From Chiloscyllium plagiosum (taxonomy: Eukaryota): a stretch of 64,000 nucleotides of DNA. Under the pieces are notes generated by a model. The model saw only the letters and a program-made list of their open reading frames with translations, ran no database searches and was not told where the DNA came from. Shown here one piece after another: positions 99 to 53,399 of the stretch. The stretch covers positions 35,154,137-35,218,136 of the forward strand of contig NC_057719.1 in assembly GCF_004010195.1 (NCBI RefSeq), read 5' to 3'. Position numbers and translations under genes: made by a program. Numbering within the stretch: position 1 is the first letter of the stretch; each line of letters starts with the position of its first letter.

Positions 99-560
99 CA
101 AGTGAAGTTCATTGCAAGCTGGACCTCATCATCCACAAAGATACCAATATGGAGTTTCACAATTTCAGAACATGAACATCTTCCTCCAGGTTTGCTGGCC
201 ACCCCCAACAAAGTTGATCCTGATTTGTATGGTTTGCTCCCAGCACAGCCAACCCATTTTCAAATATTCACAGTGCCCAGTTAGCATTTTGCTCTCTTAG
301 TTTATCATCAGCAATCCCTTTGTCTGCTTCTCTTTATTCTCTCTCTCAGCACGTCTCCATCAATTTGATTCACACTTTCCTCTCTCTCTTCCTTCTATCA
401 CCACTACACACCACACATTAAGTCATAAGCTAAATAACTATATTTCCCAACTGCTTTCAATTCTGACAAAAGGTCACAACATTCAGCATTAACTCTGTTT
501 TTCTCTTCACAAATGCTGCTGAGTTTCTCCAGCACTTTCTGTTTTTATGGCATCATTCAG

Positions 561-858
561 GCTTGAAAATGTGTTGCTGGAAAAGCGCAGCAGGTCAGGC
601 AGCATCCAGGGAACAGGAGAATCGACGTTTTGGGCATAAGCCCTTCTTCAGGAACCATACAAATCAGGTTCAACTTTGTTGGAGGTGGCCAGCAAACCTG
701 GAGGAACATGCTCATGTTCTGAAATTGTGAAACTCCTGAAGAAGGGCTTATGCCCAAAACGTCGATTCTCCCGTTCCCTGGATGCTGCCTGACCTGCTGC
801 GCTTTTCCAGCAACACATTTTCAGCTCTGATCGCCAGCATCTGCAGACCTCACTTTCT
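561..858. mobile_element. Fold-back PLE family-1 insertion with two hammerhead motifs and a captured 84-bp spacer
   Basis: Inverted arms ~565-654 and ~734-825; TSD CATCATTCAG at 551-560 and 859-868. Confidence 0.85.
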
Positions 859-1036
859 CATCATTCAGTCTATGACTGATACGTACAAACATTCACATCC
901 CCCACAAGGCAAGGGCATGTCCAGTATGAAAATCTTCCCTTGATATTGATCTTCATTCAAACAATATCTTGGTGCTACCCTCACTGAACCCCACACCAGG
1001 AGCCGGGGAATTAACAGTGACCATCAACTTAACTTG

Positions 1037-1230
1037 CTGAAAATGTGTTGCTGGAAAAGCGCAACAGGTCAGGCAGCATCCAGGGAACAGGAGAATCGAC
1101 GTTTCGGGCATAAGCCCTTCTTATGCCCGAACGTCGATTCTCCTGTTCCCTGGATGCTGCCTGACTTGTTGCGCTTTTCCAGCAACACATTTTCAGCTCT
1201 GATCTCCAGCATCAGCAGACCTCACTTTCT
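1037..1230. mobile_element. Fold-back PLE family-1 insertion, inverted within the hammerhead
   Basis: Near-perfect inverted arms joined at gcccttc|ttatgccc; TSD CATCAACTTAACTTG at 1022-1036 and 1231-1245. Confidence 0.85.
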
Positions 1231-2171
1231 CATCAACTTAACTTGACCAGCCATATAAATAGAATAGCTAGAAGAGCAAATCAGAGTCTCAGATTTCTGC
1301 AGCAAGTAACTCAATTCCTGAATTCCTAAAGCAGGAATATTCTCCATTTGCCTAGAAAACTGCAATTCCAACAACACTCAAAAAGTTCAATAAAATCCAG
1401 GATAGAACAGTCTGACTGAATGGCATTTATCCGCCATCTTAAACAGTTAATCCCTCAACTACGACCGCAGAGTCTGAGCAATGTATACTGTCTACCAAAC
1501 ATATTGCAGCAAGTCAACAAGCCTTCAAGGTTGCCTTGTGAAGTTACCAATTAAAATAAGAGCAGCATATTTTTCGGAAACCACTACCTGCAAATGCTCC
1601 CCAGAACTAGTCTGGGAAGGTCGGTACGGACGAGATGGACCGAAGGGTCCGTTCTGTGCTATATGACTCTGTATACTCAATAAGACCTATAAATATGTTG
1701 CCATTCCTTCACTGTTGCTCAGTCAAAAACCTGGAATTCACCCAAAAGAGAAGTACACTGCATGCATTACAACCCTGTATAATATAATTATTACTATCAT
1801 CTTAAAGGCAATTTGATGGCCAAAAAAATGTTGGTTTTGCTAGCTTTGTCAGCACCGTCCACAAGGGCAAATGTAAATAAAATCACTAAAACAAAACGTT
1901 ACAAAATCGAACAGCGGTTAAATAGGACAGGGCTAACTAGGAACCTTCTAAAACCCTACTTTCCACGAAGACACTTGGTTAGGTTTGGACTAAATCCCAC
2001 CCCCGCTCTCCTGATGCCTTGCAACGTTAAAGGCGCTTTACAAATACAACTTGGTGTCACTGACAGTTTACTGCGTGGCCCAGAAACTCGAACATGTTTC
2101 CGAATCATATGGCGTGATTTTCAGCAAGTTAATAGTCAAGCTTATACGGAGTAAGGAAAACCTTCCAGTAC

Positions 2172-6612: not shown

Positions 6613-7259
6613 AATACTTTGAAATCTTCTTTCAGGTACCTGAATTCACAGGATTTGTTGAGCTGCATTGTTGTAGTCCCTTTTCCATCACTAAGTTATT
6701 TATGACTTTTAGCTTTAATGTTGAACACAAACCATTCATAAGTTACGTACAATTTAGGTGAAAGCATGTCTTCAATGTTTCAAAATCTCCACAGTTAATT
6801 TATTTTCTTGAGATCTATTTAGGGTGGAATACACTTTGCAATAATCTCTCCTCAACTGCGATAGAAGTGATGTCATTCATAGTTGCTCTGACTTGTTGAT
6901 TACATCTGCTGCAATTTCATAATTTTGCCTTAATAAGTGGAAAAGCAACTGCCTGTTCCACGACATATCACCTTACATTTTGACCAGTGCCAGGATAGGA
7001 AAATTTGCAGTCATTATGTCTTACTAATACTTTCATGTTGATTGACTTCTGTGTTTGAACTTGCATATTATCATGGTTAGACTTTCATCATGTTACTGAC
7101 AAGCAAGTGATCTGTATTAGAATTTGACTATCATAAGTGCAAATGTAAAGAGCGCTGGATGGATTGCATCTTATGATGATTATCAGGTCATGTTAGTGCC
7201 AGTGGCCTGTTGCTCACATGGTGCCATGACAATTTGTGCAAATGTCTTCTAATTTATAG

Positions 7260-7585
7260 AATTCCTACAGTGTGGAAGCAGGCCATTCAGTCCATCAAGT
7301 CCACACCAACTGTCCAAAGAGCATCCCACCCAGACCTAACACCCTACCCTATCCCTGTAGCCCTATATTTCCCAAGGCTAAACCACCTACCCTGCACATC
7401 CCTCAACGCAAGGAGGAACCTAGCGTGGCCAGTTCACCTAACCTGCTTAACTTTGGATGATGGGAGGAAACCCATGCAGACACGGGGAAAATGTGCAAAC
7501 TGCACACAGACAGTTGCTCAAGGGTGGAATTGAACGTGGGTCCCTGATGTTGTGGGGCTAACCACTGAGCCACCAGGTTGCCCTT
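7260..7585 (-). mobile_element. HE1-type tRNA-derived SINE, degraded
   Basis: The reverse complement has a tRNA-like head (GGTGGCTCAGTGGTTAG...GTTCAATTCC), the central GTGTGCAGTTTGCACATT region and the LINE-shared tail GGCCTGCTTCCACACTGTA. Confidence 0.8.
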
Positions 7586-7818
7586 AAGAATGAACAGGCA
7601 GCTATAAAAGAAGATAAAATAAAATAAACCAAAAGATTTAAATATAAATATATTTGGAAGATTTTAAAACACATAGTAAAACTACAACTCCATCTATCCC
7701 ACTTTATTGTGTTCAAACACCAAAGAGAATTTGCTTTTCTATCACATCTATCAGTTTAACTTAACTTTTTCTTTCAGTTTCCAATCTTGAGAGTTTGACA
7801 GACTCATCCTTAAAAGCA

Positions 7819-8022
7819 GCTGAAAATGTGTTGCTGGAAAAGCGCAGCAGGTCAGGCAGCATCCAGGGAACAGGAGAATCGACGTTTCGGGCATAAGCCC
7901 TTCCTCAGGCTTATGCCCGAAACGTCGATTCTCCTGTTCCCTGGATGCTGCCTGACCTGCTGCGCTTTTCCAGCAACACATTTTCAGCTCTGATCTCCAG
8001 CATCTGCAGACCTCACTTTCTC
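7819..8022. mobile_element. Fold-back PLE family-1 insertion, probably young
   Basis: Essentially perfect inverted arms; 16-bp TSD CTCATCCTTAAAAGCA at 7803-7818 and 8023-8038. Confidence 0.9.
7881..7908 (-). ncRNA. Minimal hammerhead ribozyme core (stem I disrupted by the inversion)
   Basis: Minus strand CUGAGGA-A-GGGC-UUAU-GCCC-GAAA-CG-UC. Confidence 0.6.
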
Positions 8023-8419
8023 CTCATCCTTAAAAGCACACAAGCTGAGCCTAGACTTTCTCAGTTTCAAATAATCCTTTCGGGGTTCTAACCAACAGTT
8101 CTTGTTGGGCTCAACAAAAATCATTATACTGGGGTAACCTATTTTCTAAATTAACACCTTTCTTTAGGAGAAACTTTTTAAATATTAAACTTAAAACAGG
8201 ATTTCTGCAAACTGGAAAAAAGCTTTCCAAATAACGAGGTCTTCTCCAAGCAAAAGAATCCTGATTTTTCTAAACTAATGCTCCCACTGTTGTTCTGCCC
8301 ACTCAAAATTCTCCCAATGCAAACAAAATCCCATTAGTATCCCAGAAACTGCTTCCCTCATATTGGTTTTAGAAAACGCATTATACCAAAAATAATGACA
8401 AGCTAATTATTAAACTCCT

Positions 8420-16356: not shown

Positions 16357-17539
16357 TTTTTTTATTTAAGGTAGGGACACAGAGGCCTTGGACCTCTTCA
16401 TTGCAGATTTACAAGAATATAAAATGTTAAAATATTAGGAAATATTCCATTACTTTTATTTCCTTTAAATTTAGCAGGAAAGAGCGTCTAGTCAAATGTT
16501 TACAATGATAGGAGATTTTATAAAATAGGTAAAGGAACATGATTTTCTTGCTGGGAAAATGGAGAACAATGAGATAATATTATGCTCGATGATTTCATAG
16601 TTGACTTCAGAGTTCAGATTTCACTTTCAAACAAAGGATCATGTAAACCTGGGCATTGTCAAGACTGAAGTCAGTGTTTTGTTAAGTAAAGCCAGATTAA
16701 TGATGCTGAGGTAGAGTTCAGCCATGACTTAACTCAATTGTAGAACACATCTGAAGGGATAAATGTTATATTCATACCTATGATTTGTTTAGAATTATAA
16801 CATTTAGAACTTGTAGCACAAGAGGAGGCTATTTGACATGTTGTGTCCATGCCAGCTCTGCTAGTCCTATTCCCTATCCTTTTTCAATAAGCTAGTAATT
16901 TTTTTGCTCTGGTTCTTTTCCAACTCTTCCTTTGAAAACCATGATTGAATTTGCCTCCTCCACATTCCTGATCCGAAGTAGTCACTGTGTTAAGAAAAAA
17001 ATCTTCCTTATGTTACTGTTTCTTCTTTTGCAATTTACTTTACATCCATGTCCTCTGGTTGTTGGCCCACCTGCCAACAGTTTCTCTCTTTCAGCTCTGT
17101 CTAGAGCCTGCAGAGAGTCTAAATACCATCATCAAACCTCCTCTGAACCTTCTATAAGAAGCCTTCCCAACTTATACTCATAACTGAAATCTCATTCTTA
17201 GATTCTTTCTTGTAAACCTTTGCTGCAGCTCCCTATAGCTTTCAAACCTTTCCTAAAGTATGATGCCCAGAATTTGTCACAAAACCTTTTTTTCTCATAA
17301 AGGTTCATCATAACTCCTTTACTTTTCTACTCTATTTCTCTATTTATAAAACTCAGGATCCTTTTTTTTCCACCACTTTCTCAGCCTGCTCTAAACCTGA
17401 AATCTTTCTGGTCCTGCACACCCCTTTGAATTGTACTATTTGTTTTGCCTTGTTTAATTCTTGCTAACAATTTGCATCACTTTACATTTCTCTCCATATC
17501 TTTGCCCATTCCACCAGCCTGCCCATGTTTTCTTTAAAG

Positions 17540-17699
17540 GCAGAAGTGGGAGATTAGAGTCAAGATTAGAGTGGTGTTGGAAAAGCACAGCAGGTCAGGC
17601 AGCATCCGATGAAGGGCTTTTGCCCAAAACGTCCATCTTTCTGGTCCTCGGATGCTGCCTGACTTGCTGTGCTTTTGTGGCACCACTCTAATCTTGGCT
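17540..17699. mobile_element. Fold-back PLE family-1-related insertion
   Basis: Inverted arms caagattagagtggtg / caccactctaatcttg; TSD CATGTTTTCTTTAAAG at 17524-17539 and 17700-17715. Confidence 0.8.
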
Positions 17700-20600
17700 C
17701 ATGTTTTCTTTAAAGTTTATCACAATCCTCCTCACATTTTTCAATGTTTCCAAGTTTTTGTGTTAGCTGGTTTAATAAACATCCATTCACATTACTCACA
17801 TTTCTGTCATTGACTCAACCAACTTCATAACCATGCTGCCACTTTCTCTATTGGCTGATGAGCTTCAGCTTTGCTGGTAAGCCAACAACTGAACGTTAGA
17901 AAATTTCCATTGTAAGTAAGACTACGTGTACAGTATCAACCACCTTGCTGTCATCAACCTCCTGCTATGTCACCAAAAAACTCAAAACAAGTCAGTTAAA
18001 CATGATTTGCCTTTAATCAGTTTGTACTGACATTCCTTAATTAAATCCACACTTGTCCAAGATGAGAGAGGGAATCAGCACCAATAATGTCATCAATGTA
18101 CTGAAGAAAGAGTTTTGGGAGAGACCCTAATATGACTGGAACAAGGTATATTCTATGTACCCCACAGAGACGGGCATGACTGGGAGCATGCGTGTGCCTG
18201 TAGCCACACCATTGACATGAAGAAAGCCTGGGAAGTTAATGGATAAGTTGCCTACTCCTGCTCCCAGTTCTTGCACTGTTATGTTCTTAGAAATGTGTTG
18301 AGTGTTTCCATACTCCATGCTACCAAATCTTTGTTTCACACGCCCTGTTTGTTGTTACTGCCAAGACTTTCATCTCACTGAGGTTCTCAACGTTTGCTTG
18401 TTCTCCACCAGTTCAGGACTCCTTTTATTACAAACTGTTTTTTCTGAGGGAAACAGAGAGTTATCTTTGAAAAGGACTGCGCAGATGTGTGGGGCATAAT
18501 CATGTAGTTTGCAGATATATGCAAGCAAGAAGAGGAGGTAATGTGGAAGAAACTACATGGGCACTTGAGAAATGAAAAAGCAATGTTTAGTAGTTGCTAC
18601 CAGGTGAAAAAACAAAGTGCAACAGGCACAAACAACAAAAACAACAAACAATATGAGTGTTTCATTAAAATAGGAGCATTAGTACATTTGAGAAGAAAGC
18701 TTGAAACAGGGGAGGATGGTACTCACCTTGTTAGGGATAATGACTGGAATTGGTTTGGGCAGGTGTCACACAGAAACGTTGAGCTCAAAGAGAGTGTGTT
18801 TGCTGTCAATTTAACTACAGGGGGCGTACTCACCACATTTGCAGATACATTGCTTGGTAAGTCATTGCAAGCCACTAAAAATTTTGAAATAAAAAGTTAT
18901 AGAATACCAAACATATTTAGTTTCAAAATCAGTATTGCTAAAGACATTGAGGCAACCAATCAATCTGAATCTCTACTCTTTAAAATGTTTAGATGGGTAG
19001 ACTGTGTAGGAATTACAAAGTTTAGCTGCAAGAGCTGGGATGTGTGATTTTGAACATATTTGGTTAATAAGGGAGTTAGCAGAAGAAGGAAAGGAGCTAC
19101 TCCTTTGTTCTTTCTAAGTTTTTTTCACCCTATAGGCATTGGTTCTTGTGTGTGTGTGTGTGTGTGTGTAGGTGCCAGGAGGTGGGGTTGGTGCAGAAGG
19201 CTAGCTATCTGCATAATACAGGATTTGGTGGTAAGATTATTCCAATATATACAAAAGAAAAATAAAACAAAGCTGAAATAAGTAATACATTAAAACAGAT
19301 TAAGGATGGCTGGGTAGGTGATGCATTCCATTTGCAGAATGTGGGAGCTCTGTGAAGCCACTGTGATCCAGGGCAAATGCATCTACAATATGAGCTGCAG
19401 TTCCACTATCTTCAGCTCTACAATCACTGTGAAACATTAGGGAGGGGAAATATCATCTGGATTCTTTATTCCAAGATGCGATCACATCCCTTAGGATAAG
19501 GTAATTTGATTAGGTTACCAGTCAAGAAAAGGAGAACATGTTGCAAGGCGGGCAGATAAAGGAACTGTCATGGAAAAGAGCATGAGATGAATTTTAAAGA
19601 TTTTATAATTTTGCTCTTCTGTCCAGAACAAAGGTGATTTTTATTTTTCTTTTCCCTTTCGAAATGTATTCCACCACATCATCTGTTTGTCAACACTAAT
19701 TTGAAAATGACCCACAACAAACTCTCTCTTTGAGTTTAAAAAAAAGATGGCTTATTCATGCAATCAAATATATTTGATTTGACATTACTTTCACTGCCTT
19801 GTGAGGAAGAGAGAGTTTCAGAGAGTCACCGCCCTCTGTGATGAAAAATACTCTCATCTCTATCTTCAATAGGCAACTCCTTTATTTTAGTTATTCCATC
19901 CCTCCTATTTCCTGATTTTTTTCCTGCTTCTGGAATGTTACTTCTTTATCCAGGGGACGGTTAATACAACATATTTACTTGATTCATCTCCTAATAATGA
20001 AAAAAATAAGTTCCAAAAACTCACTTTCCATAGGTGCTCTTTATCTTCTAAGGTAGTCCCAAAGGACTGAAGATGACTTTCTTCAACTCCAGAACTATAG
20101 GTCCTAAAATGATTAAACAATCTAATGCTGGATCTGAATATCCTAGCATAAGTGTTTAATAGGGTGAGTAAATAGGGTTCTCAAACTTTTACATGTTCCT
20201 TCTGCTGTTTTCACATGGGTCTCCAGCTGTTGGAGATGCTGAGAAATGGTTGGAACCTTCACAGATGCTTCTTTTCCAGATTGTGCTGTCTTGGGCAAGA
20301 TATTCCTATGAATTGTTGGGGAAGCTACAGTTTTTCAAGGATGCACTAAAGATATCCTTGAAGCATTTCCTTTGTCCTCTTGTAACAAATTGCTATTAGA
20401 AACTTCTCGGACAGCTCGTTTTACAGGACCAATGTTCACTTTGTTAACGTTTTTTTGTAAATATCTGAAGAAACTCTAACAGTCTTTTTATTTTTAGCTA
20501 AGTTGGATTCACAGAGCTATACAGCACAGAAACAGACTCTTCGGTCCAACTCATCTGCACCAACCAGACATCCCAATCTGACCTAGTCCCATTTGCCAGC

Positions 20601-21000: not shown

Positions 21001-21996
21001 NNNNNNNNNNNNNNNNNNNNNNNNNNNNNNNNNNNNNNNNNNNNNNNNNNNNNNNNNNNNNNNNNNNNNNNNNNNNNNNNNNNNNNNNNNNNNNNNNNNN
21101 NNNNNNNNNNNNNNNNNNNNNNNNNNNNNNNNNNNNNNNNNNNNNNNNNNNNNNNNNNNNNNNNNNNNNNNNNNNNNNNNNNNNNNNNNNNNNNNNNNNN
21201 NNNNNNNNNNNNNNNNNNNNNNNNNNNNNNNNNNNNNNNNNNNNNNNNNNNNNNNNNNNNNNNNNNNNNNNNNNNNNNNNNNNNNNNNNNNNNNNNNNNN
21301 NNNNNNNNNNNNNNNNNNNNNNNNNNNNNNNNNNNNNNNNNNNNNNNNNNNNNNNNNNNNNNNNNNNNNNNNNNNNNNNNNNNNNNNNNNNNNNNNNNNN
21401 NNNNNNNNNNNNNNNNNNNNNNNNNNNNNNNNNNNNNNNNNNNNNNNNNNNNNNNNNNNNNNNNNNNNNNNNNNNNNNNNNNNNNNNNNNNNNNNNNNNN
21501 NNNNNNNNNNNNNNNNNNNNNNNNNNNNNNNNNNNNNNNNNNNNNNNNNNNNNNNNNNNNNNNNNNNNNNNNNNNNNNNNNNNNNNNNNNNNNNNNNNNN
21601 NNNNNNNNNNNNNNNNNNNNNNNNNNNNNNNNNNNNNNNNNNNNNNNNNNNNNNNNNNNNNNNNNNNNNNNNNNNNNNNNNNNNNNNNNNNNNNNNNNNN
21701 NNNNNNNNNNNNNNNNNNNNNNNNNNNNNNNNNNNNNNNNNNNNNNNNNNNNNNNNNNNNNNNNNNNNNNNNNNNNNNNNNNNNNNNNNNNNNNNNNNNN
21801 NNNNNNNNNNNNNNNNNNNNNNNNNNNNNNNNNNNNNNNNNNNNNNNNNNNNNNNNNNNNNNNNNNNNNNNNNNNNNNNNNNNNNNNNNNNNNNNNNNNN
21901 NNNNNNNNNNNNNNNNNNNNNNNNNNNNNNNNNNNNNNNNNNNNNNNNNNNNNNNNNNNNNNNNNNNNNNNNNNNNNNNNNNNNNNNNNNNNNNNA
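21001..21996. other. Assembly gap (N run)
   Basis: Run of n. Confidence 0.99.
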
Positions 21997-23038
21997 TGCA
22001 GTCATCAATGTAGCAGAGGAAGAGGTGGGGAGTGGTGCCAACATAATTACGGAAGATGGACTGTTCTATGTAGCCAACAAAGAGACAAGCATAGCTGGGG
22101 CCCATACAGGTGCCCATGACTACCCCTTTGGTCTGGAGGAAGTGGGAGGATTAGAAGGAGAAATTGTTAAGGGTGAGGACCAGTTCAGCCAAACGAATGA
22201 AAGTGTCGGTGAAAGGGTACTGTTGGGGTCGTCAGTAGAAGAAGAAACGGAGAGCTTGGAGGCCCTGGTCATGGCGGATGGAGGTGTAGAGGGATTGAAT
22301 ATCCTTACCTCTATACCTATCCATACCTTACCTCTGTAAGGTAATCCCTTGGCCTCCTTAGGAAAAATGCCCCATCTTATTTAGCCTCTCCCTATAACTC
22401 AGACCAGTTACAGCAACATCTTTTGTGTACTCTCTCAAGTTTACCAACATTTTTCTTATGGCAGGGTGACAAGACTTAGATGCAGCATTCTGAACGTGGC
22501 CTCGCCAAGGTCCTATACAACCACAACATGACATCCCAACTCCTATACTCAATGCACTGACCAATGAAAGAAAGCATACCAAACATCATCTTCACCTGTC
22601 TGTCTGGTACTCCGCTTTCAAGGACCCATGTACCTGTACCCTTAGGTCTCTTTGTTCGGCAACATTCCCTAAGGCCCTACCAAAATGCAACACTAATTTA
22701 TCTTATCTAAATTAAACTCCATCCACCACTGCTCCGACAATTGACCTAACGAATAAAGGTCCCATAGTACTCAGATGATCTTTTTCACTGTCCACAACAG
22801 CACCTATTTTGATGTCATTTGCAAATTTACTAACAAATACCCATGATATTCGCATCCAAATCATTTATATAAATGACAAAAATCAATGAACCCAGGACAA
22901 ATCCTTTGGTCATAGGCCTCCAGTCTGAAAAGCAACCCTCCACCCTCCATCACCACTCTGTCTCCTATCTTCAAGCCAATTTTGTATCCAATTGGCTAGC
23001 TCCCCCATGTATACTATGTGACTTAACCTTACTAGCCA

Positions 23039-24567
23039 AAAGGGTGGTGTTGGCAAAAGCACAGCAGGTCAGGCACCATCCAAGGAGTGGGAGAATCAAC
23101 GTTTTGGGCATAAGCCCTTCATCAGGAATGAGGCTGTGGGCCGGGCAGGGTGAGGGGTGGCGTTGCTGAGAGATAAATGTGTGGGGTGGGGGGTGGGGAA
23201 GGTAGCTGAGAATGCGATAGGTCGATGAAGGTGAGGGAGAAGGTGATAGGTCGGAGAGGAGGTTGGAGTGGATAGATGATGGGTGATGGACAGGTCAGGA
23301 GGGCAATGCCAAGTTGGAGGCTTGGAATTGGGATAATGTGGGGGGAGGGGAAATGAGGAAACTGTTGAAATCCATGTTGATCCCATGTGGTTGCAGGGTC
23401 TCAAGGCGGAATATAAGGCATTCATCTTCCAGGCGTCAGGTGGTAAGGGTTTGGCAATGGAGGAGGCCCAGGACCTGCATGCCCTTGACGGTTTGGGAGG
23501 GGGTTGTTTGTTGCAGGTGCCCCAGAGATGTAATCTGAAATGATCTGCAAGTAGGTGTCCTGTCTCCCCAATGCAGAGGAGACGACATTGGGCGCAACGA
23601 TACAGTAGATGACATTGGTGGACATTACAGGTAAATTTCTGTTGGATGTGGAAGGGTCCTTTGGGGCCTTGGATGGAGGTGAGGGGAGTGGTGAGGGCAC
23701 AGATTTTGCACTTCCTGGACTGGCAGGGGACGGTGCCGGGAGTGGGATGTGGGCTGGTGAGGGTTTGGACCTGATGAGGGAGTTGTGGGGGGAATGGTCT
23801 CTCCGGAATGCTGATGGGGTGGGAAGGGAAAACATATCTCTGATGGTGGGGTCCATTTGTAGGTGGCAGAGGATGATGCGATATATGTGGAGGGGTGGAA
23901 GGTGAGGGCCAAAGGGGGTTCTGTCCTTGTTGCATTGGGAGGGGTGGGGTTTGTCCGTGGTCGTCTCCTCTACACCGGGGAGATAGGATGCCTACTTGCA
24001 GATCGTTACAGAGAACATCTCTGGGACACCCGCACCAACCAACCCCACCGCCCCGTGGCTGAATACCTCAACTTCCCTTCCACTCTACCAAAGACATGCA
24101 GGTCCTAGGGCCTCCTCCATCACCAAACCCTAACCACCCGACACTTGGAGGAAGAACGCCTCATATTCCACCTTGGGACCCTGATTTTGTGTGGTTGCAA
24201 TGTGGATTTCAAGAGTTTCCTCATTTCCCTTCTCCCCACATAATCCCAGTCCCAGGCCTCCAACTTGGAACTACCCTCCTCATCTGTCCATCATCTTTTC
24301 CATCTATCTGCCCCATCTTCCTCTCCAACCTATCACCTTCTCCCTCACCTTCATCTGCCCATCACATTCTCAGCTACCTTTCCTTCCCAACCCCACCTCC
24401 CTCCATTTATCTCTCAGCCCCCCCGGCCCACAAGCCCCATTCCTGATGAAGGGCTTATGTCTGAAACACCGATTCTCCTGCTCCTCGGATGTTGCCTGAC
24501 CCGCTGTGCTTTTCCAGCACCACACTCTCGACTTTGATTTCCAGCATCTGCAGTCCTCACTTTCTAC
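23039..24567. mobile_element. PLE insertion with an inverted structure: minus arm ~23039-23953, plus arm ~23954-24567; GIY-YIG remnants
   Basis: TNVIYCI, LLCIGETG and LLYTGEIGCLLADRYREHLWD motifs; both arms end in the family-1 hammerhead terminus; TSD TAACCTTACTAGCCA at 23024-23038 and 24568-24582. Confidence 0.85.
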
Positions 24568-26859
24568 TAACCTTACTAGCCAGTCTACGATCCAGAACCT
24601 TGTTGAACACTTTGATGAAATCCATATAGACAACGTTTATCACACTGCCTTCATCACTCTTCTTTGTCACCTCTTCAAAAATCTCAATCAAATTTGTGAC
24701 ACATAATTTCCCACACACAAAGTCATGTTGACTATTCCTAAACAGTCCATGCATTTCTAAATGCATGTAAAACCTGTCCCTCAGAATCCCCTCCAACAGC
24801 TTACCTACCACTGACCTAAGGCTCACTGGTCTATAGTTCCTAGCTTTTCCTTATAGCCTTTCTTAAATAATGGCACCATGTTTGCCAACCTCCAGTCTTC
24901 TGGTACCTCACCCGTAGCTGTGGATGATACAAATTTCTCAACAAGGGGCGCAGCAATCATTTCTCTAGCCTCCCACAAAGTCCTGGTACACACCTGATCA
25001 GGTCCTGTGAATTTATCTAATTCTATGTATTTAAAGATCTCCAGCACCTCCCCTTCTGTAACATGAACACTTTACAAGACACCCTTATTTTTTTCCTCAA
25101 GTTCCTTACCTTCCACGTCCTTGTCCACAGTAAATACTGACATGGTATATTTGTTTGGCATCTTGCCCATCTCCTGTGGTTCCACATATAGATAGCCACA
25201 TAGAGCTTTAAGAGGTCCTATTTTCTCCCTAGTTACTCTTTTGCCTGTAATGTAAGTAACGTGTGTAGAATCTCTTTGGATTCTCCTTTACTGTACAGCG
25301 AGCATTTCTGGTTCAGTGTTCCGATGTCTCAGTGTACCATTTTGTCCGTGGGTGGCGATCTTGCCCTGCCCCAGTGATCCGATGGCCCAGCATTTTTCTA
25401 AGTGGCATTCTTGGCGATGGTTTCTCTTTGGAGGCTTTTGGCCAACAGGAGCGGCATTTCGGCTTTCGTCCCATCATATCATTCTCGTTATGGATGTGGT
25501 TCTCAGCCCAGCTGTGTCTATTATTTCTTTGAGACCAGGAGCCTTTGAATAGATTTTGATGAACTTTGTCTTATATTACTTTTTGTAACTTATGATTTTA
25601 CCATGACTTTTGTCATTAATATAGGTGCCATGGTAGGGCGACAAAGAACACACTTTTTTTTTCTTGTAACATGACAGTAAATTCTAAATGCTAATTCTAA
25701 CTCAATTTGCCAAAGCTATCTCATGTCCCCTTTTTGATCTCCTGATTTCCCTCTTAAGAGTACTCATACTAACCTTATGCTCCTCTATGGATTCACTCGA
25801 TTCTGATACATTCCTCCTTACTTTTCTTGTTCAGAGCCTCAATTCCTCTAGTCATCCAGCATTCCCTGTACATACCAGCCTTGCCTTTCACACTATGGGA
25901 ACATAGTATCTCTGAACTCCTGTTATCTCATTTTTAAAGGCCTTCCACTTCCCAAACATCCCTTCACCTGCGAATCATCTCCCCAATCAACTTTTGTAAG
26001 TTCCTGTCTAATACTGTCAAAATTTACCTTACTCCAATTTAAACTTTAACTTTTTGATCAGTAACTATTTTAAAACTAATAGAATTATGATCACTTGCCG
26101 CAAAGTGCTCTCTCAGTGACACCTCAGTCACTTACCCTGCCTTATTTCCTAACAGAAGGTCACGTATTGTTCCTTCTCTAGTAAAAAAGGAAGTTATCTT
26201 GTACATACTTAACAAATTCTTCCCCAAGTCCTTAACACAATGGCAGTCCCAGTCTATGTTTGGAAAGTGAAAATTTCCTACCTTTATCCTCTTGTACACT
26301 GATTTTCTCTTCCATATTAAACCTTTAGTCATTCTTTGCTTTTTTTTAAATAGGAGATCTCATCGACATGTATAAACTTCTGACCATGCAGTATGTGGTG
26401 TTGCAGTAATAAAGATTCCCCTGATTAAATGGGATTGACACAGAACAAGAGGTCAGTGTCTCATGATATGAGGATAAGATAGGCCATTTCAAACTTAAAC
26501 AACTTACAATTTCTTGATTCAGAGGGGGGTGAACTTGTGGAATTCTCTACGACAGAGGGCGGTAGAGACCAAGTCACTGAATAGGTTTACAAAAAAAAGT
26601 TCTCTCTCTTGGGATGCAGGTGACACTGACTGGACCAGAACTTATTTCCGGTCCCTAGTTGCCCTTGAGATAGTGGTAGTGAGCTGCCTTCTTGAGCCTT
26701 GGCAATCCATGTGCTATAGGTAGACCCAGAATGTTACTAGGAAGCAAATTCAACTATTTTGTCCCAGCGACAGTGAAGGAATGGCGATATGTTTCCAAGT
26801 CAGTGGTTGGTGAGGTACTCGCAGATGATGGTGTTCCCATATATCTGCCTCAACTAATA

Positions 26860-29769: not shown

Positions 29770-30537
29770 NNNNNNNNNNNNNNNNNNNNNNNNNNNNNNN
29801 NNNNNNNNNNNNNNNNNNNNNNNNNNNNNNNNNNNNNNNNNNNNNNNNNNNNNNNNNNNNNNNNNNNNNNNNNNNNNNNNNNNNNNNNNNNNNNNNNNNN
29901 NNNNNNNNNNNNNNNNNNNNNNNNNNNNNNNNNNNNNNNNNNNNNNNNNNNNNNNNNNNNNNNNNNNNNNNNNNNNNNNNNNNNNNNNNNNNNNNNNNNN
30001 NNNNNNNNNNNNNNNNNNNNNNNNNNNNNNNNNNNNNNNNNNNNNNNNNNNNNNNNNNNNNNNNNNNNNNNNNNNNNNNNNNNNNNNNNNNNNNNNNNNN
30101 NNNNNNNNNNNNNNNNNNNNNNNNNNNNNNNNNNNNNNNNNNNNNNNNNNNNNNNNNNNNNNNNNNNNNNNNNNNNNNNNNNNNNNNNNNNNNNNNNNNN
30201 NNNNNNNNNNNNNNNNNNNNNNNNNNNNNNNNNNNNNNNNNNNNNNNNNNNNNNNNNNNNNNNNNNNNNNNNNNNNNNNNNNNNNNNNNNNNNNNNNNNN
30301 NNNNNNNNNNNNNNNNNNNNNNNNNNNNNNNNNNNNNNNNNNNNNNNNNNNNNNNNNNNNNNNNNNNNNNNNNNNNNNNNNNNNNNNNNNNNNNNNNNNN
30401 NNNNNNNNNNNNNNNNNNNNNNNNNNNNNNNNNNNNNNNNNNNNNNNNNNNNNNNNNNNNNNNNNNNNNNNNNNNNNNNNNNNNNNNNNNNNNNNNNNNN
30501 NNNNNNNNNNNNNNNNNNNNNNNNNNNNNNNNNNNNN
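29770..30537. other. Assembly gap (N run)
   Basis: Run of n. Confidence 0.99.
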
Positions 30538-32790: not shown

Positions 32791-32912
32791 AGCTGACAGT
32801 ACCTGACAGTATTCCTAGGCAGTATCCCATCCAAGTACTAACTAGGCATGAGCCTGCTTAGCTTCTGAGATCAAATGATATCGGGCATTTTCAGATCAGT
32901 ATGGGCATAGGC
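32791..32912 (-). pseudogene. 5S rRNA-derived sequence (pseudogene or SINE head)
   Basis: The reverse complement GCCTATGCCCATACTGATCTGAAAATGCCCGATATCATTTGATCTCAGAAGCTAAGCAGG...TTAGTACTTGGATGGGATACTGCCTAGGAATAC aligns along vertebrate 5S, with many CpG-type substitutions. Confidence 0.88.
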
Positions 32913-40576: not shown

Positions 40577-40670
40577 AATCCTCATGAAAGGCTCTTGCCT
40601 GAAACGTTGATTCCCCTGTTCCTCGGGTGCTGCCTGATCTGCTGTACCTTTCCAGCACCCCACTCTCGAC
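40577..40670 (+). mobile_element. Solo degenerate PLE family-1 terminus starting at the hammerhead
   Basis: atcctcatgaaaggctcttgcctgaaacgttgatt...tgctgcctga..ctgctg. Confidence 0.65.
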
Positions 40671-40744
40671 TTAAAACAAGTAGAAATGGAAATTAATATA
40701 TTGGACAAACTGGGGCTTCATTTGATATACATAATAGTTTAATT

Positions 40745-49646: not shown

Positions 49647-49797
49647 GTAAGTGTTGCTTCATTGCATATTATAATTAAATATATTCATGAACAAGAATTA
49701 TATACCTTCCTTTGACCCGCTAAGCAAAAATGTCTGAACCTGAGGAATGTTTTGCATTTATGATTTATAGAATCAGTAAATAGCCTCTGTTTTAATG

Positions 49798-50406
49798 CTG
49801 TCGAAAAGCGTGGTGCTGGAAAAGCACAGCTGGTCAGGCAGGAGAGTTGATGTTTCAAGCATAAGCTCTTCATCAGGAAGGAAGGGTGGCCCAAGGGGAC
49901 TGAGAGATAAATGGAAGGGAGTGGGGCTTGGGGGAAGTAGCTGGGAATGCAATAAGGTAGATGGAAGTGGGATGTGATGGCGATAGGTCTGGAAGAGGAA
50001 TGGCTAATATTCTGCCTTGCGACCCTCCAACCACATGGGATCAATGTAGATTTCACCAGTTTCTACATTTCCACCCCCCTCCCCTTTTATCCCAGATCTA
50101 TCCTTCCAACTCAGCACCGCCCTCTTGAACTGTCCTACTTGTCCATCTTCCTTCCTACCTATCCACTCCACCCTCCTTTCCGACCTATCATCATCACCCC
50201 CCCACCTCCATCTACCTATTGCATTCCCAGCTCCATCCCCTTCCATTTATCTCTTAGCCATCTTGGCCAAACCCCTCATTCCTGATGAAGAGCTTTTGCT
50301 TGAAATGTCGACTCTCCTGCTTCTTGAATGCTACCTGACTGGCTGTGCTTTTCCAGCATCACACTTTTCAACTCTGATCTCCAGCATCTACAGTCCTCAC
50401 TTTCTC
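49798..50406. mobile_element. PLE family-1 insertion with an inverted structure in a MOK intron
   Basis: Minus arm ~49798-49990 and plus arm ~49990-50406, each with a hammerhead-like motif; TSD CCTCTGTTTTAATG at 49784-49797 and 50407-50420. Confidence 0.85.
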
Positions 50407-52438
50407 CCTCTGTTTTAATGTTGCACAATATTTAGAATATTTATGTGATGTGGCTGTTTGTTGTCAGTGTAAATGCAACTTTGTCTATTTCTAGTCAATG
50501 GATAGAGCAACTTGTCCACGTTTCCTGAGAATTATACTTTATGTAGTACAATTCTGACAAAGTTCTAACCTTATTTTTAAGCATTGTTTCAGGAAGTGTT
50601 TAAAATGCAACGGTCTCATTGGAATTACTCTTTCCACTGTGCTGTTTAATGAATGTTTCAAATTATGGCTACTTTTTTTTTTGCTCTCTGGTTTTTCTGC
50701 CCTCGTGAAAGCATTGACTGCCTGCTTCGTAGCAGAATTACCTCCAGTATCTTGCAAAATAATCTTGACTGGACACCAGCTGAGGAGAAAGAGTTAGTTG
50801 GGAAGAGAATAGTGAAACAGAACTGATTCTGTTTTATTATATTTATGATTTCTAAAGTTCAAAGTATGAGAACTTTCAGTTGTTTTCAGGCCTCACCACC
50901 CAGGTTGCTAAGTTGGGCCACTGCAATTTAAGCACCTGCTGAGTTAGCATGTCATTCATACTACATTAACGCGCCTATTACATGCATGACTTACCTTTGC
51001 CTTCTTGAAATTCTCCATAATCCATACCAAACCATAAGTTATAGTGTTTCCAGGTATAAACAGGTGAAATTGGAGTGAGCTTAGGCCATTTGGTTGGAAT
51101 TCCTTGTCATTCAACTGGAATAATCCTTCTTCAGAGTGTAAGGGCGTTTGTTTATGTTGGGAGAGTTTGAGCAAAAAAAAACACAATGTAGGTTTTTTAG
51201 GCCTTAAGATAGAAGATTCTGTAATTTTGGAGGCTTCCAAAGCAAAAAACTTTCTAGTTTCAGTTCAGAGCAGTTTGCAAAAGTCTTAGCTGAAGTTGAA
51301 TGTGTCAAGCAGTTGTTCCTAAGAAAGGAAAGTAGTAGTACTACTGTTAGAGATTATCTCCAAGTGAGGAGTTTAGTTTCAAAGTTCCAGATCAGGAGTG
51401 TTTGGTTAAAACCTTGGAAGGGTTATTTGAGCTGAAAAGATTGTAGTACTGTTGTATGAAAGCTCCAGGAAGAGGCTATCAGAATCTCACGAGAGGGAAT
51501 TGAAGCCAGAGTTAAGTTTGAACCCTGGACATGTGAAAGATAAGGAAATTCTATTTGGTATGAATATTATTTTTTTAAAATAAAAAGCGTGCCTTGATAT
51601 GTTATTACTAACAATGCTGGTCAATTCCTAAAGATGTGGCTGACAATTTGGACCTCTAGCAGGTGGTGAGCAAACCAACAAGATGGTAAAACGGTAGTGA
51701 TCTCATTCTTGTCAATCCTGTTTTTGCAGATGTATTCATCTGTCACAGTATTGCCACCTTAATCAGTCATTGTGGATAGAAAGTCCACCTTCTTCCTTTG
51801 TTTTGTGTGACATACCATTGTGTTAAATGTAGCAGACTTTGAACATTTCAAGTAGCTCATTACTGAGCATCCATGAGGAAGAATTATATTTAATACCAAT
51901 ATGTAATCTCATGTTCTGACATATTCACCATTATAACTGTGCTGAGAGATGAACCCTGTTGAACATCACTTGGCACACTTAAAAATGAGGTGCCCTTCTT
52001 ATGAAACTAAAAGTTGAGGTTACTGCAATCCAGATAGAAGAAACTGCATGTAATAGAGAGGCCTAAATGATCCCTTGACCAATGGATTAGATTGAAACTC
52101 TTCAGTACTGCCACATTCAGTGAGATTCATGATGGAGAACTAAACAAGTACAGGAAGAGGCAACTCCAGTGAAATCTCCATTCTTCATGGTCTGGAAGCC
52201 CAGCACAATGAAAAAAGACTGAAATATTTGTATCCACCTTCCACTAAACTGCTGATTGCGCGATTTATCTTGGCTTCATCCTGACGTCCTAGCATCACAG
52301 TTACTACTCTTCAGCCAATTTGACTTACTGCATGTGATCAAGAAACAGCTGAAGGCACTGAATACTTCAAAGATCCTGACAACAAACCAGAAATAGTATT
52401 GAAGACATAGTGCAGAACTAGCCATACCCCTAACCAAG

Positions 52439-52660
52439 GATAAAAGCAAATTACTACGGTTGCTGGAATCTGAAACCAAAAGAGAAAATGCTGGAAAATC
52501 TCAGCAGGTCTGGCAGCATCTGTAAGGAGAGAAAAGAGCTGATGTTTTGAGTCGAATTGACCCTTTGACAAAGGGTCAGTTAGACTCGAAACATCAGCTT
52601 TTTTCTCTCACAGATGCTGCCAGACCTGCTGAGATTTTCCAGCATTTTCTCTTTTGGTTT
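52439..52660. mobile_element. Fold-back PLE family-3 insertion
   Basis: Palindrome centred on ccctttg-a-caaaggg (52568); TSD CATACYCCTAACCAAG at 52423-52438 and 52661-52676. Confidence 0.8.
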
Positions 52661-53399
52661 CATACTCCTAACCAAGTTGTTTCATCCATCTGAGAATGTG
52701 AAAAATTGCTCATGAATGTTCTGTTCACAAAAAACAACTCCAAACCAGCTAATAACTGCCATCAGTCTTTTTTCAGTTTTCAGAAAATTGAAGGAAGGAA
52801 TCATCAATAACCCTATCAACTGGTACTTGCTAAGGAATAATCTGCTCTCTTGACATTCCAGTTGGGTTGTGCAGGAATACTCCTGACATCTGTTACTACC
52901 TTATGCAAACATGAATAAACAGGATGAACTCCAGAGGTGAGCTGAGTGATTGTCCTTGACATCAAGGCAGCACTTGATCAATATGTGAAGCTCTAGCAAA
53001 ACTGAGCTAGTGTCATTGTAGAAAACCTCCTGGAATGGCTCCAACTAGTGAAGAAAATGTTATAGGAAGTCGATCTCTCTGCCTCAGGATAGGAGTTCCT
53101 TTAGTAGTAGTGTTCTGTGCTGAACCATCTTCAATAGCTTTCCCTCCATCACAAGATCAGAGCCAAGGTAATCCCCATCATCACTGGAAACAAACTATAC
53201 CTTTCCTGTCACCGGGTCAAAATCCTTGATCTTTCTTCCTAATAACACTCTGGGTATCCATAGACTGCAGTAGTCCCTTAATGAACAAAACAGTTATGAA
53301 TAGCCAATAAATTCTGGCCTAGCCAGCAGCGCATGCTTCACATGAACAAACAGTGTGCAATTTGATTGTTTTCTTTCCCCTGCTTCTTCCTCCCATTTG

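Follow-up and report, generated by a model that had tools for sequence, protein, structure and literature searches.

A fold-back insertion of two Penelope-like element termini and the 5' edge at which such termini end

Results

The insertion at 7803-8038

Our window, the whole 64,000-nt stretch of Chiloscyllium plagiosum DNA that was analysed, contains at 7803-8038 a 220-bp insertion with an exact 16-bp target-site duplication (TSD; 7803-7818 and 8023-8038). Element positions are numbered from the C of the CUGANGA core (+1); on this scale the predicted hammerhead cut falls after +28 and the tailed end is +124. The insertion consists of two termini of a Penelope-like element (PLE):

7803..7818, + strand: left target-site duplication, 16 bp; its last base is common with the inverted arm, and the empty site in X9 and X14 has a single copy
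7818..7909, - strand: PLE terminus, inverted and tail-less, element positions 0 to +91
7881..7908, - strand: minimal hammerhead motif (CUGAGGA, stem II, GAAAC; predicted cut after 7881), features as in PMC4209133
7900..7909, no strand: inversion junction of type (0,+10), with an 8-nt loop and a 2-nt GG overlap; 10 exact copies, and 1,023 with A/T at +5
7908..8022, + strand: PLE terminus, forward, element positions +10 to +124, without CUGANGA
7990..8022, + strand: one-sided 33-nt "tail", of the kind in PMC11167929 and PMC3846280
8023..8038, + strand: right target-site duplication (exact match)

This order of TSD, inverted terminus, forward terminus and TSD had been given in a preliminary description of the DNA and is confirmed here. 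The inverted terminus, described there as lacking its last ~35 nt, is 33 nt shorter than the forward arm, or 36 nt if the ctc common with the TSD is counted. The perfect hairpin of ~90 bp is indeed perfect but slightly shorter, the arms being 100% complementary over 82 bp around an 8-nt loop. The inversion point lies inside the hammerhead, as had been stated, and, compared with an estimate of ~15-30 nt upstream of the predicted cut, the GG overlap was measured 28 and 18 nt ahead of it. A read-through RNA is predicted to form a hairpin of about -180 kcal/mol in which the hammerhead motif would be buried. Taken by itself, the insertion is dead and unremarkable.

In a contig of organism B (X9 record 24), 7802 is joined straight to 8023, that is, the site is empty, and a contig of organism C (X14 record 10) fits one target copy at the site. 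Since the orthologous site is thus empty in two related organisms, 220 bp were inserted at 7803-8038. An X1 contig of organism A, possibly the source of the assembly, has 0 differences over 7500-7839 and 8001-8400, which takes in both flank joints, and an X5 contig of organism A from a separate study has 0 differences over 7520-7842, which takes in the left flank joint only.

Among the 147 of 267 window frames of at least 62 aa that were scanned, no host gene was found, only LINE pieces and one sub-threshold match to TTC3/DZIP3. The match belongs to a candidate exon-like stretch about 1 kb upstream, at 6628-6762 (+), whose ends resemble an acceptor and a donor and which stays open in one frame for ~40 codons; the match is below the cut-off, with no support from the genome search (E 6.4) or PDB. 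If this exon is real, the insertion is intronic.

The parent element

The partial ORF of a parent copy (L170:3951-6197, 749 aa) matches RVT_1 (E 1e-8) and GIY-YIG (E 3e-4; 21.5 bits against a cut-off of 22.6), and the translations of the parents L167 and L170 carry a CX4CxxC linker before GIY-YIG and a CCHH motif. A CX2-5CxxC linker with CCHH is the definition of Neptune, and these motifs are common to Nematis too (PMC8557442). Judged by its translation, the parent is an EN+ PLE, Neptune-type by motifs which Nematis shares. The terminus stands ahead of the 5' body and also after the parent ORF, and a complete end-to-end copy was not seen. The RT core gave 59,438 first-look candidates in the genome, a figure that is not a copy number.

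The locus has the make-up of an EN+ PLE insertion unit, an architecture already published (PMC3846280, PMC8557442): an adjacent inverted, 5'-truncated terminus standing head to head, a one-sided tail of 30-40 bp (33-36 nt here) and a TSD. Common to both are also a pseudo-LTR hammerhead motif, microhomology joints and captured DNA between termini. Unlike the units of those papers, ours consist of only two termini, of ~90 and 115 bp, and occur in thousands; the sharp 5' edge is mapped here, whereas the accessible text of the two papers gives no breakpoint distribution. The non-LTR retrozymes of bioRxiv 10.64898/2026.07.22.740005 likewise originate from PLE pseudo-LTRs and have a type I hammerhead, but they are arranged head to tail with a full ribozyme in each unit, whereas 7803-8038 has its termini head to head and a single, incomplete motif.

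Related copies in the window

Five further copies lie in the window:

551..868, + strand: sister fold-back, TSD 10, arms beginning at -2 and -1, with an 84-bp insert between the arms
1022..1245, + strand: sister fold-back, TSD 15, arms beginning at +4 and +12
17524..17715, - strand: older-subfamily fold-back, TSD 16, tailed left arm from ~+43 and tail-less arm from +3
40577..40672, + strand: solo older terminus beginning at -1 to -6, no clear TSD
52423..52676, - strand: fold-back of another family, TSD 16 with one mismatch, core not consensus CUGANGA

The same architecture had been ascribed to 1037-1230, 17540-17699 and 52439-52660, and a start at the core to the solo copy at 40577. All of these are real, and the first is of the same kind. 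The second is a fold-back with its TSD, but it belongs to an older subfamily, has its tail on the left arm and begins that arm outside the ribozyme; the third is also a fold-back with a TSD, but of a different family. The solo copy starts where it was said to, its TSD being unclear.

The 84-bp insert within 551-868 was templated locally: in inverted orientation it matches window 151-234, which lies 400 bp upstream, at 95% identity. Another fold-back pair, in the sampled blocks, has a 66-bp insert between its arms. At 23027-24581 and 49783-50422 the window has long-armed inverted pairs of older subfamilies with a one-sided tail and apparent TSDs of ~15 bp. Two assembly gaps of the window, 21001-21995 and 29770-30537, both abut the 5' side of a terminus; they may conceal longer copies, which would skew counts to short ones.

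The 5' ends of arms cluster at a sharp edge

Breakpoints were collected from the window plus 1.2 Mb of position-chosen stretches (1.264 Mb in all); the first 30 genome matches, being biased towards the query, were left out of the statistics. Among 212 arms, 166 had a called 5' end, 35 ran past -100 and 11 were censored, the calls in old copies being uncertain by a few bases. Ninety of the 166 called ends fall at -6..+13, with a sharp edge at -3/-5, and the stop rate in this interval is 0.028 per nt vs 0.004-0.007 in neighbouring bins (four to seven times). Young (37/69) and old (53/97) copies cluster alike. The interval was picked after inspection of the data; in a scan test the best 20-nt window held 90 of 145 ends, whereas 2,000 uniform draws never gave more than 51, so that a uniform distribution along the element is contradicted. 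When the 64-kb window is left out, 82/157 ends remain at -6..+13, with 38 at -5..0 vs 5 at -11..-6. Another 44 of the 212 arms end earlier, at +14 to +90. The focus on the 5' half of the ribozyme proposed in the preliminary description is therefore real for single ends but overstated for pairs: at least one arm ends within -6..+13 in 30/43 pairs and both arms in only 14/43, as would be expected if joining trims one end.

A genome-wide pattern search found 8,258 head-to-head junctions with both arms reaching at least +12, and the control pattern found 0; the head-to-head architecture is thus not due to chance. With 41 junction types among 43 pairs, the copies are repeated, independent products, as had been supposed. 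Forty of the first 50 junctions listed were examined: one (0,+10) variant and 39 of the 42 junctions of other types, the three omitted ones all being of a single short type. At 33 of these 40 junctions the arm that reaches further has its end at -5..0 (one end call of -11 is an artefact of mismatch tolerance), the TSD is at least 9 bp in 28, and overlaps of 1-5 nt are present at 24. A literature search covering openly accessible main texts found no PLE breakpoint maps or clustering, twin-priming models or strong-stop jumps.

The edge is the 5' end of the element itself

When only the 5' body served as query, 30 loci were found, among them the query's own; two of the 30 are censored by gaps. 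Of the 28 uncensored copies that carry body, 27 begin at or after -5 (15 at -5..+8) and one at -30. Because body-carrying copies start at the edge where the short arms also end, we conclude that the sharp edge is the 5' end of the element itself; the suggestion that a "pseudo-LTR boundary" sets the end was thereby borne out. The edge is not absolute, for L184, one of five body-carrying copies in one set, is a partial tandem with a long native upstream, a structure in keeping with D. virilis Penelope, whose tandems regenerate the promoter (PMC2377424).

At 20 of the 30 body loci only 199-729 nt of body are present before a second terminus begins (L212-L237). This second terminus begins at -5..-2 in 17 of the 20 composites, and the position at which the body is joined differs from copy to copy. 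All eight composites with an inverted arm have a TSD of 10-16 bp around the whole and exactly one tailed outer end. Independent internal deletions are not expected to hit one common breakpoint, and for this reason the terminus-body-terminus units are likely products of run-off at the template end followed by a template jump. Such jump products are a minority, since none of the 90 block arms ending at -6..+13 has the first 900 nt of the young body in sense upstream.

Tails and junction classes

One arm is tailed in 39/43 short pairs; no pair has two tails, and four old pairs have none by the threshold chosen. A further 40 pairs gave 36 with one tail, two with two and two with none. Tail-less young ends lie mostly at +86..+97, in long copies as well, and some tail-less arms stop well short of +86.

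The commonest junction type is the one at our locus, (0,+10), with 1,033 exact junctions (10 with G at +5 and 1,023 with A/T) and, by eye, eight of the first 50 listed. Of 20 consecutive (0,+10) loci (L240-L259), 19 carry the tail on the +10 arm (p 4e-5), compared with a tail polarity of 19 vs 17 in the other types; the two (0,+10) pairs of the position-chosen blocks both have the opposite polarity. A special master for the variant with G at +5 was considered and rejected, its 10/1,033 being like the frequency of this base elsewhere (1/79, 1/80). Two loci 114 kb apart (G000:C1:1800954 and C1:1914768; L295, L296) have the same 11-nt templated junction insert and different outer ends.

The hammerhead motif

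The inverted arm at 7908-7881 contains the elements of a minimal type I hammerhead (PMC4209133): CUGANGA, an extra base before G10.1-C11.1, stem II, GAAA and a palindromic 15.2-16.2. The motif is on this arm only, and the forward arm is without it. Helix I is incomplete, for the arm begins at position 0 and leaves 1 bp, whereas the parents can pair 3 of 4. From these features, the ribozyme at 7803-8038 is probably inactive. An Rfam scan of the window returned no ribozyme at the gathering threshold, only a 5S rRNA-like copy at 32791-32912 (-), with 55.5 bits.

Discussion

Based on these findings we propose, with a probability of roughly 0.7, that 7803-8038 is one insertion of two Neptune-type PLE termini, one tailed and one tail-less, made by two-strand priming, run-off at the 5' end of the RNA and head-to-head sealing. 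Both strands of a staggered cut would prime reverse transcription (RT) at two internal start sites, in a form of twin priming. The templates may be the 5' pseudo-LTR of the full RNA, giving a strong-stop-like short cDNA of ~125 nt. Each cDNA would then run off the 5' end of the RNA, which we place at the edge where the hammerhead motif begins, and the two cDNA ends could be sealed head to head through a short overlap by microhomology-mediated repair. The ribozyme would stand at the breakpoint because it occupies, as we propose, the first 33 nt of the RNA, and not because it cuts or blocks.

Twin priming is known from LINE-1, in which both target strands prime cDNA, the inversion is sealed by short overlaps and a TSD results. 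The mechanism proposed here shares all three of these features. The inverted segment of a LINE-1 insertion comes from elsewhere in the RNA, further upstream, whereas here the arms copy the same sequence, which gives a perfect hairpin. For PLEs, in vitro work on PAc, a Poseidon element of the green anole, showed that both strands are cut and extended and that RT starts at two internal sites bracketing the tail (PMC11167929). Two-strand priming at these two published RT start sites would give one tail per pair, as is seen here. The PAc starts lie 111-118 nt into an ORF that begins at stem II, and our tailed end is ~115 nt past stem II. Unlike our element, PAc belongs to the Poseidon clade and not to Neptune, and PMC11167929 maps cDNA starts (3' ends), not stops; its main text gives no model of head-to-head joining or jumps.

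Symmetric twin priming leaves the polarity bias of the (0,+10) type (19/20) unexplained. This bias leaves room for a self-priming snap-back, in which the second arm arises by extension of a nucleic-acid end that has folded onto itself at the junction: a one-sided reaction could yield such a polarity, the junction forms a small stem-loop, and the two arms of one insertion have a common haplotype. A snap-back on an antisense template has also been proposed for palindromic PLE junctions (PMC3846280). We nevertheless regard it as unlikely. A pure snap-back of either arm would be incomplete, since only one arm has the tail and only the other has positions 0 to +9; two templates or a strand transfer would be needed. 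In addition, most junction classes are symmetric, and some junctions contain inserts of 66-84 bp.

It is less probable still that RT stalls at the folded ribozyme or at a protein bound to it while the RNA continues upstream. The ends do cluster within the motif, and the anole ribozyme is protein-assisted (PMC11167929). The ends lie, however, beyond stem II on its 5' side and at a sharp edge, the 35 of 212 arms that pass -100 have read through, body-carrying copies begin at the same edge, and the terminus folds no better than its shuffles (z -0.06). RNA structure, which the preliminary description had offered as one possible cause of the stop, is not supported on these grounds.

A MITE- or SINE-like fold-back master that multiplied as a whole, if only to give the (0,+10) class, is very improbable. 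The 1,033 exact junctions, the share of this type among the first 50 listed and its strong polarity bias are what such a master would leave. Yet (0,+10) copies are not uniform: position +5 is occupied by any of three bases, the outer ends range between +44 and +98, the TSDs measure 6-17 bp, both polarities occur, and no common flank was seen in the 20 loci. Arms within one (0,+10) insertion agree at 38/40 diagnostic site comparisons, and the 20 loci have three haplotypes among insertions, the same three as among parents. The arm agreement, the parental haplotypes and the varying outer ends and TSDs favour recurrence of (0,+10) over a single master. Over the whole sample the fixed termini, fixed centre and fixed TSD length of a MITE are absent, outer ends and TSD lengths vary, and the diversity of junction types contradicts one MITE-like master with identical junctions.

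Self-cleavage by the hammerhead as the source of the template 5' end is, in our judgement, highly improbable. Ten of the 38 ends between +14 and +53 do lie at +27..+31 (p 0.016), and genome-wide 97 arms start at G29 vs 53 at G26 and 35 at G38. When rows with GA microhomology or a mutated longer arm were removed by eye, G29 fell to 49 vs 38 and 35 (p 0.07), so the raw excess appears to be mostly explained by GA microhomology; the 97 are also few beside 8,258. The main peak lies ~30 nt upstream of the cut, in agreement with the earlier view that cleavage itself does not set the end, and in vitro cleavage is dispensable for the anole PLE (PMC11167929). The cut site (+28) is no clear breakpoint hotspot, and ribozyme cleavage is a minor route at most. 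As for the hairpin being an artefact of assembly, no public contig was found to span its centre and assembly gaps adjoin some terminus copies, but this is hardly credible given the TSD, the asymmetric arms and the empty sites, an independent contig crossing the joint of flank and inverted arm, and varied junctions in thousands genome-wide.

Whether the RNA end proposed above is a transcription start is, from the sequence around it, a matter of about even odds. Around the A at -3 the sequence fits YYANWYY, which we take to be initiator-like. A TTTATCT-like motif at -36 to -28 is kept across subfamilies ~30 nt before the 5' edge, and its position could fit a candidate core promoter element. A cap-derived G is not evident at the body junctions, where an untemplated G was seen by eye in 1 of 17 and C, native at -4, is commonest. 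A splice acceptor at -3 was rejected: AG is absent there, and the short copies have no upstream exon in common. In D. virilis Penelope an intron ends at the corresponding point of the ribozyme (PMC4209133). That element resembles ours in that promoter and start lie inside the pseudo-LTR and that its RNA has a fixed boundary where helix I begins on the 5' side. It differs in that the boundary there is formed by the end of an intron of 75 nt, 46 nt past the start, whereas here no AG immediately precedes -3 (PMC2377424, PMC4209133).

More tentatively, and at somewhat less than even odds, we suggest that PLEs have a strong-stop-like cDNA: priming in the 5' pseudo-LTR would be followed by run-off at the RNA start, which would coincide with the first strand of helix I, and then by end-joining to a sister cDNA, yielding fold-backs, or by a jump back into the RNA, yielding terminus-body-terminus units. 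If this is true, a telomerase-related RT would use an LTR-like strand transfer, and one intermediate would account for both pseudo-LTR tandems and inversions, readable from thousands of genomic junctions. The origin of the tandem and inverted structures of PLEs has been stated as an open question (PMC8557442, PMC2377424). This family offers at least 8,258 readable junctions and, should the density of 39 per 1.2 Mb apply throughout, ~115,000 short pairs. The rules that it suggests can be tested at the nucleotide level: each pair has a single tail, 5' ends stop at a sharp edge, jumps depart from this edge, and one junction type is biased in polarity. It also leaves thousands of near-perfect hairpins of 70-90 bp scattered through the genome. 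RNA editing of long perfect hairpins is well established.

Of additional note, two copies on different contigs, L119 (block B116) and L082 (block B81), have 461 bp of upstream sequence in common at 99.6%, partly not element-like; either the segment was duplicated, or it belongs to a composite that is mobile, or the assembly is in error.
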